From contig CAVRTN010000003.1 of NCBI GenBank assembly GCA_963724185.1, positions 261,085 to 325,084 of the forward strand: a DNA stretch of 64,000 nt. The letters are read 5' to 3'. Under the pieces are notes generated by a model that searched no databases, was not told the origin of the DNA, and saw only the letters and a list, made by a program, of their open reading frames with translations. The position numbers were made by a program, and so were the translations under genes. Positions 39,387 to 45,261 of the stretch are shown in pieces; position 1 is the first letter of the stretch; the number at the start of each line of letters is the position of its first letter. Origin of the DNA: Pyrinomonadaceae bacterium. GTDB taxonomy: Bacteria > Acidobacteriota > Blastocatellia > Pyrinomonadales > Pyrinomonadaceae.

Positions 39387-41408
39387 ATGCATTCCATTGC
39401 CGACGCCCTCACATCTTTGCGCGAACATTTCGGTTTCTCCGATTTTCGTGAAGGTCAGCGTGAAGTTGTCACCGCCATTCTCGAGGGTAAAGATGCCGTG
39501 GTTGTAATGCCTACGGGCAGCGGCAAGTCTCTCTGTTATCAGCTTCCTGCCTTGATGCTCGACGGCGCCACCGTCGTAGTTTCCCCGCTGATCGCGCTGA
39601 TGAAAGATCAGGTCGACGCGCTTCACGCGCGCGGCCTACCCGCCACGTTCATCAACAGTTCGATCGACGCGTCGGAACAGGGAAAACGGATTCATGGGCT
39701 GCGTCGCGGCGAGTTCAAGCTGGTGTATGTCGCGCCTGAACGCTTTCGCAGTGGCAGGTTTCTCGAGGCGCTCCAGTCGCTGCACATTTCTCTGTTTGCA
39801 GTTGACGAGGCCCACTGCATTTCCACCTGGGGTCACGACTTCCGTCCTGATTATCTCGCGCCTGAAGAAAGTGGTCCAGTCGCTCAATAGCGGTGACGCG
39901 CGCGCCCGCAAACTCTCGCGCTTACAGCCACCGCCACGCCCTATGTGCGTTCAGACATCATCGAACAACTTGGATTGATCGCGCACCCGAGCACTTTTGT
40001 CAGCGGCTTTGACCGACCAAACCTGACCATCGACGTGGTCCATACTGAAAAGGATCGAGAGAAGGTCGGGAGGATCAAGCGACTCGCGAAAACCACGTGA
40101 TGGCGGCTCAGGAATTATTTACGCATCTACTCGCAAAGCGGTGGAGCAAGTAACCAATCACTTAGCGCCGAGGGGCTGAGCGTGACTGCCTATCACGCCG
40201 GCCTGGGTGATGCATCGCGTGTGAAGGCGCAGAACGAATTCATGTCGGGTGCGGCCCAGATGATCGTGGCCACCAACGCATTCGGCATGGGCATCGACAA
40301 GCCGGACATCCGATTTGTTGCTCATTATCAAATGCCCGGGTCGATTGAAGCCTACTATCAGGAGATTGGCCGCGCCGGACGTGACGGCCTTCCTTCTTCA
40401 TGCGTTTTGCTTGTTCAACTACGCCGACAAAAACACGCACGACTTTTTCATCGAGGGTTCTTATCCAGGACCGGAACTGGTCAAAGAAGTTTACGCTTCG
40501 CTTACTGGCGACCGGCTTGAAGCGGATAGAACTCTCGGCGTCCGAAATAGCGAAGCGCGCCGGCGCTCGTAACGAGATGGCGGTTCAATCTGTTCTCTAC
40601 CTGCTCGAACGCGCCGGTCACATCGCCAGGAGTTCCTACGACCAACGCACTGCCCGATGAACCCCCTCCATGGGAAACCGCGGCCAGAATCAAATCAGAA
40701 GGAGCGGTGGTCTCGAAGGGATCGGGCGCGACTGCGTCTTCTGGCAAGAGTCAGCCGCGCCGCGGTCGTAGCATCATCATGTTGGACCAGGCGCCGTTGA
40801 CAGCTCTCCGCGTCGAGTCTGGTGATGTTGCTCGCCGGGCAGCGCTTGAGCGTCGAAAGCTGCGAGAGATTATCGAGTTTTGTTATACGGAGCACTGCTA
40901 TCGCGCTCATATCCTTGACTACTTCGGCGACCGTCATCATGCACGCAGGTGCGGCACGTGTGGAAATTGTGCGCCAACTTCTCCTGCACGAACTCCGTTA
41001 ATCGGTGACGAGTTAGTGTCTGCCACTGTACCGTCCAGCCGAAAGTTAAAAGGCACAAAAGCTGCATCGGTCCCGTCGCTTCGTGCACTCACTACTGCGG
41101 AACATCTACGCGTGCGAAAGATACTCGCCTGTGCCGCCCGCTTGAAGGGACGATTTGGCAAAACAATTCTGGCGAACACGCTGCGCGGCTCAGCGGCCAA
41201 GGCCATAATGCAATCCCACCTGAACGAGCTGTCGACCTATGGGATTCTGAAAGAAATGCGACTTGAGGAGTTGCTCATCCTGATTGATTCGCTGGTCGCG
41301 GCAGAGTGTCTCAAGCTGAGTGGCGGAAACTATCCAACGGTTTCCATTACTGACCTGGGGGAACGGGTAATGCGCGAGCAGGCGCAGGTAGAGTTGAGAC
41401 TAGATTAG
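39387..41408 (+). pseudogene. recQ: ATP-dependent DNA helicase RecQ, at least 4 frameshifts
   Basis: 39387-39890 carries FREGQREV, MPTGSGKSLCYQLPAL and DEAHCISTWGHDFRPDY. 40182-40520 carries ATNAFGMGIDKPDIRFV and QEIGRAGRDG. 40707-41408 carries the CGTCGNC zinc motif, the RQC domain and the C-terminal domain. Confidence 0.85.
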
Positions 41409-41766
41409 CAGGAAGAAGTCATCGTTCTGATCACGCTTTGCAGTGACTTGACCGTACCGACCTTCGTCGACCGCAACGCTCACAAGCTCCAACTATCGGC
41501 TGGTTCCTCCGCTGCTGGAACTTTTGTATTTCTCATCAACAAGGGCACTTGCGAAACGCTATTGTGTCCCGCTGGAGACTCATCTTAGACTTGCGACTCG
41601 ACAACCTCGGTGACACGTCACACTTACCTGAGTCGCCTGGAAGACTTTCATTGTCCAAACGACCTCAGCCCGGATCAGGAAGCAGAGGTTCCTTATCATC
41701 GATTCGACAACAGCGACAGCGACCGGAGAAGCCGGCACGGCTCGGCGAATTGTTTGGCGCGACCTG

Positions 41767-42387
41767 ATGGATGCTTTGGGCTGCGCGGATTCGCATGTTT
41801 ACCCAGCCGGCGTTGAACTCTTTCGCCAGGATTCCAGTCCCGGTCAGATCTATTTCGTAGAGACCGGCGTCACCAAGTTGACTCGTTACGAAGAAAATGG
41901 CGGCGAGTTTATTCTGGACATTCGGTTTCCGGGTTCGCTTCTGGGTTCGGAAGCACTTATACGTCAAAGGCCCCACTCGTTTTCCGCCGCGACAGCTACT
42001 CCCTGCCGTCTGATGCCTCTTTCAGCATCGCACTTTCTTCGTCTACTGAAGACCGAATCGATATTGGCAACGTTTCTTCAGGACAGCCTTTGCGCAGCGG
42101 TGTTGAGCCAGGCCGCTCGTATGTCCGAGATTGCCTGTTTGCCTGCTCGTCAACGTCTGGAGCAATTGCTCTGGATGCTGGCCCACGAGCGCTTTGAAGG
42201 CGGCAAGCGAGGCTTCAAGTTTCAATTACCACTCAAGCATTGGGAGGCTGCGCAGTTACTCGCAATTACTCCTACCTACCTTTCTCGTCTGTTGGGTGAA
42301 CTGGAGACGGAAGAAATAATTAGCCGGCGAGGTGGCTGGATAGTACTCCGAGAGCCGGCGAGTCTCTGGCATCGAGTTGATGAGTGA
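41767..42387 (+). CDS. Crp/Fnr family transcriptional regulator
   Basis: 206 aa with a cNMP-binding-like beta-barrel (YPAGVELFRQDSSPGQIYFVETG) and a C-terminal HTH (EAAQLLAITPTYLSRLLGELE). Confidence 0.85.
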   Translation: MDALGCADSHVYPAGVELFRQDSSPGQIYFVETGVTKLTRYEENGGEFILDIRFPGSLLGSEALIRQRPHSFSAATATPCRLMPLSASHFLRLLKTESILATFLQDSLCAAVLSQAARMSEIACLPARQRLEQLLWMLAHERFEGGKRGFKFQLPLKHWEAAQLLAITPTYLSRLLGELETEEIISRRGGWIVLREPASLWHRVDE

Positions 42388-42486
42388 GAGCCGACTATTG
42401 CGTTTCAAAGTAGTTCGATCACGGGGTCATACCAGTTGAACGACAATCTACAAGGGGAGTCTTTAAGATGCGGGAGGTTGAAATCA

Positions 42487-42750
42487 ATGACAGATGAAGT
42501 GCCCGGCACTCGGGATGACTTGGCAGTAAGGGCCGTTCTTCTCCTTGTTCCAGTCACGTTGACGGCGCGATTGCTTGAACTCTGGGCGCCGAAGCCGTTG
42601 TCATGGCCGGTGAGCGCTCTGGCTTGGATGCTCTTGATTTACTGGCTGCCTACTAGAGCGGACTTTAGCTTCCGGCGTTGGATAATCATAGTATCGGTCT
42701 CAGTACTGCTGGTCCTCATCGTCGCGATTCTGCAACCAGACTTGCTTTAA
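42487..42750 (+). CDS. hypothetical 87-aa membrane protein (about 3 TM helices)
   Basis: ATG at 42487, 8 nt after GGGAGG. The sequence is hydrophobic and Trp-rich, with no recognisable family. Confidence 0.4.
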   Translation: MTDEVPGTRDDLAVRAVLLLVPVTLTARLLELWAPKPLSWPVSALAWMLLIYWLPTRADFSFRRWIIIVSVSVLLVLIVAILQPDLL

Positions 42751-42840
42751 CGACTTGGGCTGGTCTTCACGAATCCCTTTTAGCAGCGCTTCACTTTGGC
42801 GCTCATCGACCACTGCACTCTAACTACCTGGAGGACCCCT

Positions 42841-43428
42841 ATGCAACGCACTATCGTCATATCACTGATCTGTAAACGATTCCTAATCACCCTGGCAACT
42901 CTCGCTCTTCCGCTCGTTTTAGTCACTCAGACAGAGGCGAAGGCTCTTAAGGACGCGGCGGTCGCCAAAATAGCGTTAGTCTCTCTCGCGGAAATGAAAG
43001 GAGCCAACCTCAAGAATACGAATGAAGTTAAGGCCCGGCTCCTATACCTGATGAAACACAATCCGAAAGCAGTCAAACTACTTTCTAAGGAATCTCTTTG
43101 TGCGACGCTGGCACTCGAAGAAAGAGTTGGTTTTGGGAGTTGCGTCAAGAACTGTCTGAAGGATGTCGGAATTAGTGCTTTTGCACTGATCGGGTGCGGG
43201 GTTTCGTGCGCTATGGCTTGGACTGGAGCTGCAGCGCTGCCATGCGCCGTTTGTCTTGGTGTGAGTATCACTGTCCTCAATACTTGCGCCCTCGGATGCT
43301 CGTTATATGGCCGAGAAGAGATTCTTATTGAGGAAAGTTTGACGCGCAACCAGCGCAAATCCCGCGCGCCTACGCGCTCACTGCAGGCAAAGCTCAGGCT
43401 TAAACCGGCGATTGCGCAGGCGAACTGA
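42841..43428 (+). CDS. secreted or membrane Cys-rich protein of unknown function
   Basis: ATG at 42841 after GGAGGA, with a signal-peptide-like N-terminus (…LALPLVLVTQTEAKA). There are 9 Cys within 67 residues (nt 43099-43299) in a Gly/Ala/hydrophobic context, followed by a basic tail. Confidence 0.55.
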   Translation: MQRTIVISLICKRFLITLATLALPLVLVTQTEAKALKDAAVAKIALVSLAEMKGANLKNTNEVKARLLYLMKHNPKAVKLLSKESLCATLALEERVGFGSCVKNCLKDVGISAFALIGCGVSCAMAWTGAAALPCAVCLGVSITVLNTCALGCSLYGREEILIEESLTRNQRKSRAPTRSLQAKLRLKPAIAQAN

Positions 43429-43575
43429 ACTTTCAGTCTAATGTGAGTGCTCATTATTTATTTAATGAGGACGGTGCGCGCAGTCGCGTCGGCCCAAGAG
43501 CTCGAATTTGCCCGACGTGAAAGTCGACTGCCGCGACTGCGCTCACCACGCTTTTCCTACGAAGGGGAGAAACTC

Positions 43576-45261
43576 ATGAGAATTAAGTCACTCATTGCTT
43601 TGGCGATATTAACTGGGCCTCTTCAGGTTGTGGCCCAAACAACGTCAGGCCCGCCGCCATTGACGGCGGTTATGAAGGTTACTGCTTCTGCAGAGCTGGA
43701 GGCGGTACTCGCGGAGGTGGGCAAACTGGACGATAAGCTGGCGATAGTAACTGTTAAAGCCCGAACGGCAGGTTTAATTGCGTTGTCCGACCCCATCCGA
43801 TCAGAAATTATCTTTCGTGAAGTTTGGAAATTCAGCAGAGAACAAACTGATGAGGACTTCGAGAAAGGAACAGCACTGGCCGTGATTGTGAACGAGCTGC
43901 TTCCGCGAAACCCCAAGCTCGCCAAACAGTTCTTAAGCGAAGACGCCACGCGCGGATCCAGTCAGGATCTTGAAGTTAATCGCAGGGCGAAATTGGCTTC
44001 GCGGCTGGTCGATGAAAATCCTCGGGCTGCTTCAGGAATTTTGGAGGATACATTGACCAGAGGAGTAACGCCGGCTGGATTAGCTGCGCTGTTACGACTG
44101 CGGGACAAGAATGCTCTGCTCGCAGATTTCGTTGTTGGGAAGTCGATGGAAGGACTAAGAATTCAACCGGATTTGGTGTCGTTAAGTAGCCTGCACCTGC
44201 TGTCGGTCTACCTTTTTCCCGAAGGCAACAACGTGGATCTTAGTTTATCGCTCGAGGGACTGCAGTTCCAATACTTTGCCACCAGCTACGAGGCTCTGCG
44301 GGCTTCACTGGCTAAGAGTGAAGAAAACCAGCTGAAAGAAAAGGCGTACACGAAAACCGAATTGCAGCGTCGCGGTCTGCATCAAGCGCAATTGTCGATG
44401 GTATTAGCAGCGCTGGCGCCGCGACTAGCGCCTAACCTCATCGGTGAGTTAAATGCCCTCGCGGACAAGCTTGGGGCGCAATTGCCACCCAATCTCGCAC
44501 ACTTGGCTAAACTTACTAGTTCCAGATTGGCTGGCGATAGGACTCTTCCGGAAGATCCAGATCATGCGATACCGCTGGCGATCCAGGGTGGCGACTATGA
44601 CGAGGCGACTCGCCTAATCGACGCTCTGAAAAGTGAGGAGATGAGGAAGCTCTATTCGCAACTTCTGTTAAAGACGGAGGCCAGATCCCTCTTGAGTACG
44701 GGAGACGTGGCCAAAGCTTTGACACGGATTAGGAAAGTGGAAGACGAAAATGCGCGGCTGGTGTTTTACCTCGAAGCGCTAAAAGCCGCGGAAAAGAAAA
44801 ATGATCCTTCGCTTTCCAGCGTAGTCATAAATGAAGTTCGAGGCTTCATTCCGCAGGTCGACCGGAATGGGCTGCACGTGAGAACGCTGCTGGCCTTCGC
44901 TTCTCAGCCTGCCGCCCTGGCGTCCACTGATGAAGCTCTGGGGTTTCTGAATTCAGCAGTCGGGTCGATTAATTCCCTCGCGAAGTCCACCAAGGATGAC
45001 ACGCGAGGAAAATCTGCTCTCGATCAGGCGTGGGCGGAGGTCAATGATCCGCGCAGCTTTCTGGATTCGCCGGAGTTTGCACATGCGTTCTCTACAATCG
45101 GGTTGCTTGATCTGGAGCGGACGATTATTGAAGCGAGGAAGATAGAAATTAAGTCGCTGCAACTCGTCGCGCGGCTCGAAGCGGCCGGTGAGGTCTTGCG
45201 AGCAGATGCTCGCAGGCCCAAACTGAAAACCACAACCAAAACCGTCAACGCTTCCCGCTGA
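43576..45261 (+). CDS. secreted all-alpha (HEAT/TPR-like) protein of unknown function
   Basis: The ATG at 43576 (after GAAGGGGAG) gives the signal peptide MRIKSLIALAILTGPLQVVAQ. The protein is 561 aa, Leu/Ala/Glu-rich, with no motif I recognise. The ORF track begins at 43447. Confidence 0.5.
   Translation: MRIKSLIALAILTGPLQVVAQTTSGPPPLTAVMKVTASAELEAVLAEVGKLDDKLAIVTVKARTAGLIALSDPIRSEIIFREVWKFSREQTDEDFEKGTALAVIVNELLPRNPKLAKQFLSEDATRGSSQDLEVNRRAKLASRLVDENPRAASGILEDTLTRGVTPAGLAALLRLRDKNALLADFVVGKSMEGLRIQPDLVSLSSLHLLSVYLFPEGNNVDLSLSLEGLQFQYFATSYEALRASLAKSEENQLKEKAYTKTELQRRGLHQAQLSMVLAALAPRLAPNLIGELNALADKLGAQLPPNLAHLAKLTSSRLAGDRTLPEDPDHAIPLAIQGGDYDEATRLIDALKSEEMRKLYSQLLLKTEARSLLSTGDVAKALTRIRKVEDENARLVFYLEALKAAEKKNDPSLSSVVINEVRGFIPQVDRNGLHVRTLLAFASQPAALASTDEALGFLNSAVGSINSLAKSTKDDTRGKSALDQAWAEVNDPRSFLDSPEFAHAFSTIGLLDLERTIIEARKIEIKSLQLVARLEAAGEVLRADARRPKLKTTTKTVNASR

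Follow-up and report, generated by a model that had tools for sequence, protein, structure and literature searches.

What does an exported protein do that packs nine Cys into 67 residues of otherwise hydrophobic sequence, and what holds it outside the cytoplasm? The question is raised by an open reading frame (ORF) on the forward strand, 42841-43428 in the window (the whole 64,000-nucleotide stretch of Pyrinomonadaceae DNA that was analysed), which encodes 195 amino acids from an ATG lying 8 nt past a GGAGG. A previous, sequence-only reading had offered two affiliations, one with halocin C8-like bacteriocin domains and one with MerT/MerC-like membrane hairpins. Its general idea, an exported Cys-rich hydrophobic domain that is possibly a bacteriocin, survives, while both named affiliations fail.

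Cysteine signature and family

The protein falls into four parts. Residues 1-34 (42942 being the last nucleotide of this segment, 42841..42942, forward strand) read as a Sec-type signal peptide by which the protein would be exported: K12-R13 precede a hydrophobic core, T-x-A precedes a Lys, and at least 90% of the relatives in a 66-sequence alignment retain A33. A variable segment follows (residues 35-96, 42943..43128, forward strand), poorly conserved and of low pLDDT, which includes the putatively unpaired C87; its residues 35-86 are Lys-rich, as had been claimed, but the helix claimed with them appears only in part, and with low confidence, in the AF2 model. Most relatives have CxC at the site of the query clade's single C87, and in one variant (g47) a long acidic Ala/Pro-rich linker replaces the Lys-rich segment; one variant of the protein has a lipobox. 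Next comes the Cys domain (residues 97-157, 43129..43311, forward strand), patterned CX3C-X13-CX3C-X11-CX2C-X10-CX3C, and last a basic tail (residues 158-195 and the stop codon, 43312..43428, forward strand) with low pLDDT and a recurring motif. Taken as 42 residues, the tail has a net charge of +5, bearing out the basic character first ascribed to it; in most full-length family members the tail charge is +4 to +8, and a QAKLxLK-like motif recurs, 27/73 tails carrying it as a loose pattern.

The translation between C87 and C153 contains nine Cys within 67 residues, with exactly the spacing first written down. Such density is far above chance: Cys makes up 1.0% of the crude proteome of the source genome, where 25/5218 crude ORFs reach at least nine Cys in a 67-residue window, several of these being repeat artefacts or Fe-S proteins.

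Conservation of the pattern had been set beforehand as the check on which the reading could fall, and the pattern was kept in all 73 full-domain sequences of the (uncurated) family, which comprises 73 clusters at 50% identity. All nine Cys are retained in 4/4 close homologues; the eight core Cys with the spacing CX3C-X13-CX3C-X(6-14)-CX2C-X10-CX3C are kept in 73/73 full-domain sequences, query included, and in the 66-row alignment 7/8 core Cys columns are invariant, the remaining one being conserved in at least 90% of rows. Substitution in the domain is constrained, with a dN/dS of 0.036 against the nearest relative (L002) and 0.23 against a more distant one. In the G050 homologue, an in-frame TGA was considered and rejected as selenocysteine; it is a nonsense mutation or base error, because relatives have Trp (TGG) at the same site.

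The family is present in 16/401 Pyrinomonadaceae genomes and in 0/374 genomes from elsewhere in the phylum. Pfam, NCBIfam, PADLOC and PHROGs returned nothing for the protein, and Pfam/NCBIfam scans of the 66 alignment members gave nothing consistent, no Pfam family occurring in more than one of the 66. Searches of the PDB by single sequence and by profile returned no match, nor did Foldseek comparison of the AF2 model with the PDB (zero matches). A profile search of a 5.8-billion-protein set recovered only the same unnamed family, and the names met in cluster look-ups were just 'hypothetical protein' and Pyrinomonadaceae. The query has the combination by which the new family is defined, namely a signal peptide, the Cys pattern and an adjacent or fused solenoid of the P560 type described below. 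This protein and its relatives are a previously undescribed family confined to Pyrinomonadaceae.

The island and the solenoid partner

The Cys gene lies in a 3.9-kb island of four genes between recQ and thiG. The first gene (41767..42387, forward strand) encodes a Crp/Fnr-family transcription regulator of 206 aa (Pfam cNMP_binding 4.5e-16, HTH_Crp_2 2.2e-10), conserved upstream of the module in 11/16 related loci at 49-88% identity. The second (42487..42750, forward strand) encodes the hydrophobic neighbour seen before, an 87-aa membrane protein with 2-3 predicted membrane helices and no family match in Pfam, NCBIfam, PADLOC or PHROGs, homologues of which (34-80% identity) lie upstream of the Cys gene in most loci. 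Downstream of the Cys gene is that of P560 (43576..45261, forward strand; 561 aa), which is Cys-free and, by its sequence and AF2 model, a secreted alpha-helical solenoid.

The island is accessory. Three congeners lacking the module have a recQ-thiG gap of 96-440 bp, and most genomes in this genus are without it. Where present it occurs in single copy, at a chromosomal site conserved in two genera, and no mobile element was observed. Purifying selection acts on each of the four genes (dN/dS 0.04-0.29; 0.24-0.29 for the 87-aa gene), and diversification was not seen. Scans of the locus for promoters, terminators and a Crp-site consensus did no better than on shuffled sequence, inverted repeats were unremarkable, and Rfam gave no match over 41380-43600.

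Composition of the module varies around a fixed pair. The regulator may be of Crp, AraC or ECF sigma type, while the Cys/P560 pair is constant. Unrelated membrane proteins take the place of the 87-aa protein in variant modules; among the 87-aa, 142-aa and 250-aa membrane proteins no kinship was detectable, except between the two of 250 aa. ABC ATPases occur in the g47 variant locus. The main module has neither a leader-cleaving peptidase nor a dedicated exporter, and the island contains no redoxin and no metal-resistance or transport genes. The 87-aa protein may be an immunity factor, as had been proposed, but need not be: G667 has a module that is intact except for lacking it, and in the variants it is replaced. 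In G661 the regulator is truncated and the two middle genes are deleted, P560 being kept without a Cys gene.

The association with P560 is close. Its orthologue adjoins the Cys gene in 15/16 Cys-positive genomes, the contig of the 16th ending at the gene, and in G609 the Cys domain is fused to P560 in a secreted 991-aa protein, with a Cys-rich segment bearing EF-hand-like loops after the Cys domain. This linkage suggests that the Cys domain binds to P560. The AF2 model of P560 is all-alpha (pLDDT 84, pTM 0.73), and Foldseek against the PDB found only generic TPR/ARM-type solenoids at low TM-scores (best E 1.6e-3); Pfam, NCBIfam, PADLOC and PHROGs gave no match, with nothing consistent across 40 alignment members and no signalling output domain in Pfam. 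Distant P560 paralogues adjoin other exported Cys-rich proteins, some together with a membrane-anchored TlpA-like redoxin, and other paralogues lie beside msrPQ. P0148, the Cys-rich protein beside the P560 orthologue of G716, has no detectable homology to the Cys-hairpin family.

A probable helical hairpin and its relation to the membrane

The Cys domain is modelled by AF2 at a pLDDT of ~86, with helices at 98-109, 113-126 and 132-171, such that C135, C138, C149 and C153 all lie on one continuous helix opposite two shorter ones. By sequence geometry, each arm has its four Cys on one side of a helix, in an arc of 40-60 degrees, and 18 residues, or exactly 5 turns, separate C101 from C119 and likewise C135 from C153. 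The proposed turn is the only segment of variable length (6-14 residues). Divergent (type B) homologues, related to the family by hhalign (96%, E 4.5e-9), have extra Cys that come as matched arm pairs, equidistant from the turn or from the open end. In an analysis of mutual information (MI) between the arms, the predicted antiparallel register accounted for 12/20 top pairs, where 29% would be expected (p=0.003), an enrichment that falls to p=0.06 without turn-proximal pairs. The covariation is weak, and phylogeny confounds it; the majority of the top pairs run from one arm to the other. One intra-arm pair, 102/125, agrees with a model of two independent hairpins.

Since the AF2 model, the helical-face geometry, the matched extra Cys and the weak covariation all fit, the domain is probably a single antiparallel helical hairpin with four disulfide rungs. 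The predicted rungs are probably C123-C135 and C119-C138 near the turn, and C105-C149 and C101-C153 at the open end, a pairing under which C87 is probably unpaired in the query clade. Two independent hairpins (C101-C123 and C135-C153) are disfavoured because 132-171 is one helix in the AF2 model and the top covarying pairs mostly cross arms. A VKOR gene with an adjacent DsbA-like gene is present in the source genome, and oxidative folding of the domain outside the cytoplasm by this pair is possible.

Such a hairpin might instead be embedded in the membrane. Insertion was gauged on the translocon (Hessa) scale as the best 19-mer dGapp for each arm of the 73 members, with a mark at +1 kcal/mol. 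Arm A had a median of +4.8 kcal/mol with 0/73 at or below the mark; arm B had a median of +2.3 kcal/mol, like the family's own signal peptides, and came close to the insertion threshold in 11/73. In none of the 73 members were both arms at or below +1 kcal/mol. For comparison, a genuine transmembrane helix, in the 87-aa neighbour, came out at -2.3 kcal/mol. On the Kyte-Doolittle scale, by contrast, the 19-residue maximum was at least 1.6, the range of membrane segments, in 68/73 members, and for this reason, and with arm B near threshold in some members, the query protein itself might yet be embedded.

A Cys-lined hairpin in the inner membrane, working like MerT/MerF/MerC or CcdA as thiol/metal relay or redox sensor, would accord with these Kyte-Doolittle values, with arms of ~20 residues each, with the richness of arm B in beta-branched residues and the aromatic residue that follows it, with the one acidic residue conserved in arm B of most members, and with an arm A in the query clade that is the most hydrophobic of the family (+1.6 kcal/mol); having both flanks outside the cell, it would also be compatible with the secreted fusion. 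Nevertheless we consider it quite unlikely. The translocon scale, the plainly polar arm A of the homologous type B proteins and the secreted fusion argue, at the level of sequence, against a membrane hairpin. One variant is a lipoprotein, for which none is needed, and the turn carries no positive charges. The basic tail, once placed in the cytoplasm, would lie outside the cell because a two-helix hairpin comes after a cleaved signal peptide, so that the positive-inside argument fails. In exported domains rich in disulfides, Cys are typically the sole invariant residues. Models of Mer, DsbD and CcdA gave no match (for MerT, MerC, MerF and MerE, in Pfam/NCBIfam with the protein and 66 relatives), and the surroundings are not those of a mer operon: merR, merP, merA and other metal genes were not found at the locus, the neighbours being recQ, the Crp regulator, the 87-aa protein, P560 and thiG. 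Mer transporters, moreover, have their Cys pairs in true membrane-spanning helices, which the arms of the Cys domain are not on the Hessa scale. The protein is not of the Mer type, the second affiliation offered by the sequence-only reading. Also disfavoured is a type I topology, in which the chain would span the membrane once and leave its tail in the cytoplasm, since a disulfide ladder requires both arms on the same side and the secreted fusion carries its Cys-rich segment after the domain.

Function and comparison with known systems

The account we tentatively favour, at somewhat short of an even chance, is that of an exported four-rung hairpin held by P560 in an accessory, possibly bacteriocin-like, module. 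The conserved unit of the exported protein would be a hydrophobic domain of ~55 residues with two antiparallel helical arms, locked by four disulfide rungs that the DsbA-like/VKOR pair would form outside the cytoplasm. Such a domain, presumably too greasy for stability alone in water, would be bound and kept soluble by the secreted alpha-solenoid P560 in a CcmI-like way, and the two proteins would make up a conditionally expressed accessory module under the Crp/Fnr-type regulator. The most likely role for the hairpin with its cationic tail would be membrane-active, bacteriocin-like antagonism, with the small 87-aa membrane protein conferring self-protection.

Taken by itself, an antimicrobial role for the hairpin is speculative and doubtful. 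Hints of one are the patchy distribution, the cationic tail, the adjacent small membrane proteins, the ABC ATPases of the g47 locus and a locus logic resembling halR-halC8-halT. Against a toxin stand the purifying selection, the single copy, the conserved site and the lack of a peptidase or exporter in the main module, as well as the loss of the 87-aa protein from the intact G667 module and the retention of P560 without a Cys gene in G661; we know of no bacteriocin system with a 560-aa solenoid partner. Some of the same observations fit a non-toxic envelope component (surface-active and hydrophobin-like, or structural in the outer envelope) or a peptide ligand sensed via P560: selection is purifying across all four genes, the chromosomal site is conserved in two genera, the Cys/P560 pair is constant while the regulator changes, and TPR-type proteins commonly bind peptide ligands. 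This reading seems unlikely, however, for the island is not a core part of the envelope, most genomes of the same genus being without the module; P560 has no signalling output domain, and a surface-layer role has no specific support.

Were the Cys reduced, they might bind soft metals, as Cu(I) thiolate clusters, or buffer periplasmic redox stress, with P560 as carrier or scaffold. Csp copper-storage proteins, soluble four-helix bundles whose Cys lie in the core, bind Cu(I) by CX3C/CX2C on facing helices, and the domain likewise has CX3C and CX2C, on helices predicted to face each other. TlpA-like redoxins, found in some distant P560-paralogue modules, are enzymes of the kind that maintain Cys in reduced form so that metal or haem can be inserted, and msrPQ, adjoined by other paralogues, is an envelope oxidative-repair system. 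We nonetheless regard this as very unlikely: the Csp family (Pfam DUF326) was matched neither by the protein nor by the 66 members, nor was any other metal-binding family in Pfam; His or Met ligands are lacking; the island is without metal genes or a redoxin; the outer, non-Cys faces of the helices are hydrophobic, unlike those of soluble storage bundles; and the periplasm has an oxidising DsbA/VKOR system.

The favoured account, an exported hairpin held by P560, can be extended into a bolder claim, possible although the chances lean clearly against it. The Cys-hairpin protein and P560 would be a new two-component system expanded in Pyrinomonadaceae. Its periplasmic alpha-solenoid would serve as the dedicated holdase of exported Cys-rich clients, namely the four-rung hairpin, relatives of it with 12-16 Cys, and unrelated mini-peptides of 6-9 Cys that bring a TlpA-like redoxin of their own. 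The hairpin itself would represent a new class of structure among bacterial toxins or effectors, membrane-length and laddered with disulfides. Soils are rich in Acidobacteria, yet to our knowledge almost nothing is known of how these bacteria compete or build their envelopes. Here is a family without annotation in the databases searched, whose Cys signature is unusually rigid and whose fold Foldseek could match to nothing in the PDB; its helical-repeat partner is obligate and sometimes fused, and belongs to a wider family that repeatedly adjoins other exported Cys-rich peptides. Should the hairpin be a membrane-active peptide with a disulfide ladder and its own holdase, the few known helical antimicrobials stabilised by Cys would gain a new scaffold, and a new type of accessory factor would come with it; as part of the envelope or of redox chemistry, the hairpin would still mark a lineage-specific periplasmic system.

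Among known systems, halocin C8 shares with this locus a hydrophobic, Gly/Ala/Cys-rich exported domain of ~60-75 residues and a regulator gene upstream, with ABC genes in one variant locus, as in halR-halC8-halT1-3. The protein might on these grounds be a divergent member, its precursor cleaved to a Cys-rich archaeocin-type peptide with the immunity part in the same polypeptide, yet we give this next to no likelihood. The Cys spacing of halocin C8 is different. TIGR04449 (halocin_C8_dom, cut-off 24 bits) was matched neither by the protein (P0001, E<=1) nor by the relatives (0/66), nor in a six-frame translation of the source genome at E<=10, a search to which control genomes respond, and Hac8_like_N/HalI (PF22862) was unmatched in Pfam by the protein and its 66 relatives. 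ProC8 has a Tat signal, an N-terminal HalI immunity domain (PF22862) and a C-terminal mature peptide (preprint), whereas the present protein has a Sec signal with a K-R n-region, no twin-arginine (Tat) motif and no HalI N-domain, and its Cys domain is not C-terminal because the 42-residue tail comes after it. In a GTDB-wide survey of C8 homologues, bacterial matches were confined to Bacillota, Nitrolancea and WOR-3. Membership of the halocin C8 family is effectively refuted at the sequence level.

Other parallels would be architectural. In the alpha-hairpinins, which are plant antimicrobial peptides, the motif C1X3C2X4-20C3X3C4 forms a helix-loop-helix bridged by the disulfides C1-C4 and C2-C3, and sometimes nothing but the Cys is conserved. 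C101X3C105X13C119X3C123 fits it literally, although the AF2 model and covariation favour pairing of arm A with arm B, and the present protein is bacterial with eight core Cys; alpha-hairpinins, like the twin-CX3C small Tim proteins, would be structural analogies only. Glycocins (sublancin 168, glycocin F, thermoglycocin) are helix-loop-helix bacteriocins with nested disulfides and a glycosylated loop residue, a three-disulfide variant being known, and their loci encode a small immunity protein and dedicated thiol-disulfide oxidoreductases. They too are bacterial exported peptides of two antiparallel alpha-helices with nested disulfides (here predicted), and their oxidoreductases are echoed by the redoxin of distant P560-paralogue modules. 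No sequence relationship was detected, and the differences are many: the island has no SunS-type glycosyltransferase and no C39-peptidase ABC exporter; the Cys-hairpin protein has a Sec signal peptide where glycocins have a leader, four predicted rungs to their two, much more hydrophobic arms, further segments at both termini and, as partner, a solenoid of 560 aa; and its host is a diderm acidobacterium.

The partner has its own parallel in cytochrome c maturation, where CcmI is a TPR holdase for exported clients such as apocytochrome c. Homology of P560 to CcmI/CcmH was not detected in Pfam, and the CxxCH haem motif and ccm genes are absent. The likeness to CcmI/CcmG is one of logic alone: in the periplasm a holdase of TPR type binds an exported Cys client, and a TlpA-like redoxin anchored in the membrane acts on the Cys. 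It is this arrangement that the P560/Cys pair, together with the P560-paralogue modules that include a redoxin, would resemble.

The Cys-rich protein and its family

The ORF at 42841–43428 (+), which has GGAGG 8 nt upstream of its ATG, encodes 195 residues: a signal-like hydrophobic N-terminus (residues 1–34; K12-R13, a hydrophobic core, and T-x-A before K), a Lys-rich segment (residues 35–86) that is only partly helical in a low-confidence AlphaFold model, a Cys-rich stretch running from C87 to C153 with nine Cys in 67 residues, and a 42-residue C-terminal tail of net charge +5. This matches the layout (signal segment, Lys-rich part, nine Cys in 67 residues, basic tail) described in a sequence-only reading. 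The Cys density is unusual within the organism's own genome: Cys accounts for 1.0% of residues in its crude ORF set, and only 25/5218 crude ORFs have at least nine Cys within any 67-residue window, several of them being Fe-S proteins or repeat artefacts. The gene is real and constrained. All nine Cys are kept in four homologues sharing 73–82% identity with it, whole-gene dN/dS is 0.2–0.28, and the Cys domain taken alone gives 0.036 in comparison with the nearest relative and 0.23 with one farther away.

Searches with the protein gave no match in Pfam, NCBIfam, PADLOC, PHROGs or PDB sequences, nor did the family profile match PDB; when 66 aligned relatives were scanned singly, any Pfam family was matched by at most one member and any NCBIfam family by at most two. 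When 1.84 billion cluster representatives were searched exhaustively with phmmer, 73 relatives were recovered at E≤1e-3, few of which carry names (all ‘hypothetical protein’), the sole organism named being Pyrinomonadaceae. Across whole genomes, the profile matched 16/401 species of Pyrinomonadaceae, spread over four genera, and 0/374 genomes from other families of the phylum. Judged by these searches, the family is uncurated and lineage-restricted and, to our knowledge, undescribed in the literature as searched.

Conservation of Cys spacing had been set beforehand as a check on the protein, and the pattern was kept in 73/73 full-domain homologues, all sharing CX3C-X13-CX3C-X(6–14)-CX2C-X10-CX3C with the middle spacer as its sole variable length. 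Seven core Cys are the only invariant columns of the 66-sequence alignment, the eighth being at least 90% conserved. Most members also carry a CxC 10–15 residues upstream, of which the protein's own clade keeps only C87, hence its odd Cys count. One homologue (G050, L018:1500–1950), near which lies an ECF-type sigma factor gene, has an in-frame TGA just before the first CX3C, at a position that is TGG (Trp) in relatives; selenocysteine was rejected on account of that Trp, and a pseudogene or base error is probable.

A four-gene island and the predicted partner solenoid

In a run of four co-directional (+) genes the Cys gene stands third, preceded by a Crp/Fnr-type regulator (41767–42387) and an 87-aa membrane protein (42487–42750), and followed by P560 (43576–45261), a secreted, Cys-free protein of 561 aa. 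The block stands between recQ and convergent thiG, which are separated by only 96–440 bp in three congeners without it, and is an accessory island. Purifying selection acts on each of its four genes (dN/dS 0.04–0.29). Another genome of the genus (G661, L035:4139–6271) carries a decayed island: a truncated Crp gene (126 aa) stands after recQ, with an intact P560 orthologue immediately behind it, and neither the 87-aa gene nor the Cys gene is present. A module in another genus (G667) again abuts thiG, without the 87-aa gene. Upstream of the Crp gene, at 41600–41720, two non-coding blocks (~14 and ~22 nt) are identical across loci whose proteins are only ~72–75% identical, and so are more conserved than coding DNA; they have no Rfam match and may be an operator or leader element. 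The g47 variant (L031:5428–11068 in G604, and L028 in G698) has the order ABC ATPase, Cys protein, 250-aa membrane protein, P560, second ABC ATPase, its Cys protein, of 270 aa, being a putative lipoprotein whose Ala/Pro linker is acidic.

The strongest functional clue is the recurring pairing, and in one case fusion, of P560-type proteins with exported Cys-rich ones. Full-length P560 orthologues were found in 17/401 family genomes, including 15 of the 16 that are Cys-positive; in the sixteenth, the Cys gene lies at the end of its contig. P560 is confidently modelled by AlphaFold as an all-alpha solenoid (pLDDT 84, pTM 0.73) that matched only generic TPR/ARM-type repeat proteins in Foldseek (best E 1.6e-3, low TM-scores), and members of its alignment showed no consistent Pfam match. 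In G609, of the same genus, one secreted protein of 991 aa (L032:1739–4714) unites a P560-like solenoid with a Cys-hairpin domain and also contains another stretch rich in Trp and Cys and two DxNxNG loops resembling EF-hands; upstream lie genes for an AraC-type regulator and for a multi-pass membrane protein of 250 aa.

Distant P560 paralogues occur in ~57 further genomes, and several adjoin exported Cys-rich proteins. At two loci, here called type B (L042:5303–8156 in G733; L040:4965–7848 in G658), a 187–197-aa exported protein with 13–17 Cys, whose C-terminal domain is homologous to that of the island's Cys protein (hhalign 96%) but has extra matched Cys pairs, precedes two others, one P560-like and one an unrelated membrane protein of 142 aa. 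Five other modules (L037:4125–7781 in G192, L038:3599–6924 in G145, L046, L053 and L054) are headed by unrelated signal-peptide mini-proteins (61–99 aa, 6–9 Cys). In L037 and L038, which the family scan covered, the genes that come next encode a TlpA-like AhpC/TSA-Redoxin protein anchored in the membrane, a secreted protein of ~220 aa and a P560-like solenoid of 600–680 aa; the other three have the same layout by ORF size, with a similarly sized membrane-anchored ORF after the mini-protein. A P560 orthologue in G716 (E 6e-82; L036:4127–7200) comes after a secreted protein of 287 aa whose hydrophobic C-terminal domain has six Cys, symmetric as C-x6-C ... C-x7-C ... C-x6-C. That protein has no detectable homology to the Cys family. 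From these gene neighbourhoods and the G609 fusion, there appears to be physical cooperation between P560-type solenoids and exported Cys-rich clients.

Other P560 paralogues have no exported Cys-rich neighbour. Seven distant ones (L039, L043, L044, L045, L048, L051 and L052) are divergent to an msrP/msrQ-like pair (named by eye; MsrPQ is a periplasmic methionine sulfoxide reductase) and a ~200-aa protein, and convergent with a zinc-ribbon protein. Three further small ORFs in the island's own genome (C4:1551865–1552188, C1:389166–389495 and C4:1747628–1747873; 81–109 aa, 9–13 Cys, signal-like N-termini) have no P560-type gene nearby.

Predicted fold and location of the Cys domain

AlphaFold, supplied with the 66-sequence alignment, modelled residues 100–155 at pLDDT ~86, with helices at 98–109, 113–126 and 132–171; Foldseek of the model against PDB gave no match at E≤10. 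Several observations fit a single long hairpin of antiparallel arms, joined by four disulfide rungs (123–135, 119–138, 105–149 and 101–153). C135, C138, C149 and C153 (arm B) lie on one unbroken predicted helix and share a single face of it, judging from helical periodicity; C101, C105, C119 and C123 share one face of the other arm (arm A). C101 to C119 and C135 to C153 each span 18 residues, exactly five turns, and three non-helical residues (110–112) would take up the difference in arm length. The turn between the arms is the only segment of variable length in the hairpin. In the type B proteins P0149 and P0150 (homologous to the domain at hhalign probability 96%, E 4.5e-9), the extra Cys form matched pairs across the arms, equidistant from the turn and from the open end, as added rungs would be expected to look. 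Covariation (MI-APC on 81 non-redundant domains aligned without gaps) is suggestive only of the antiparallel register: residue-number sums fell within the predicted 253–261 in 12 of the 20 strongest inter-arm pairs (29% by chance; p=0.003), and in 8/14 once turn-proximal pairs were removed (p=0.06). The organism, in whose genome DsbB was not found, probably uses a VKOR-based disulfide-forming system, a DsbA-like Thioredoxin_4 gene standing directly upstream of a VKOR homologue (C4:453650–454673); the presence of this pair makes extracytoplasmic disulfide formation plausible.

Embedding of the domain in the membrane would accord with its Kyte-Doolittle hydrophobicity (GRAVY 0.7–1.8; 19-residue maximum at least 1.6 in 68/73 members), by which it resembles membrane helices, although Cys, Ala and Gly are rated too highly by it. 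On the translocon scale (Hessa values of 2005; best 19-mer per arm), arm A had a median of +4.8 kcal/mol (range 1.6–10.8, none ≤+1) and arm B +2.3, against +2.4 for the family's own signal peptides and −2.3 for a true membrane helix of the 87-aa neighbour, and none of 73 members had both arms ≤+1. The clade of the island's Cys protein has the greasiest arm A of the family, which explains the sequence-only impression of a possible membrane hairpin. Moreover, Glu, Ser, Gly, Thr and Asn abound in arm A of the type B proteins, the lipoprotein-like variant has a lipobox and long acidic linker ahead of the domain, and in G609 the domain sits within a secreted protein, followed by the Cys-rich stretch and EF-hand-like loops. 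Membrane embedding of the island's own Cys protein is, on balance, improbable, and the domain is probably exported and non-spanning. A Mer-type transporter, as had been proposed, was rejected given the lack of a Pfam match and the translocon-scale values; nor does the suggested cytoplasmic tail follow, since a two-span hairpin would put the tail outside the cell, and a single span with a cytoplasmic tail is at odds with the secreted fusion and the disulfide ladder.

Possible role and known systems

We infer that the Cys protein would be exported via Sec and its signal peptide cleaved, and that the DsbA-like/VKOR system would oxidise the eight core Cys to form the four rungs of a ladder. The product would be a rigid, hydrophobic rod of two helices, roughly equal in length to the thickness of a membrane and bearing a cationic tail that is flexible. 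Less firmly, P560 may bind the greasy rod, keeping it soluble or delivering it; TPR holdases serve exported clients, for example CcmI for apocytochrome c. These structural and partner proposals we regard as reasonably likely. More speculatively, rod and tail might be membrane-active and serve antagonism in the manner of a bacteriocin, with self-protection by the small membrane protein or, in variant modules, by the 250-aa membrane protein with ABC ATPases. Taken on its own, an antimicrobial role is doubtful: purifying selection throughout the island, its fixed chromosomal site, the main module's lack of a leader peptidase or exporter, the absence of the 87-aa gene from one intact module (G667) and the retention of P560 alone in G661 all count against the toxin reading.

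Membership of the halocin C8 family, suggested earlier, was dismissed when family-model searches of the protein, its relatives and the genome proved negative; the likeness lies in the regulator-precursor-ABC order of the halocin C8 locus, whose logic the module shares. Glycocins, which have two or three disulfides and clusters holding oxidoreductase and immunity genes, share the predicted fold principle, but membership was rejected, their defining glycosyltransferase and peptidase-exporter being absent. The plant alpha-hairpinin motif, C1X3C2XnC3X3C4, is literally present in C101–C123, although its Cys are predicted to pair otherwise and homology cannot be claimed. Through glycocins and plant alpha-hairpinins, an antimicrobial precedent exists for disulfide-stapled helical hairpins.
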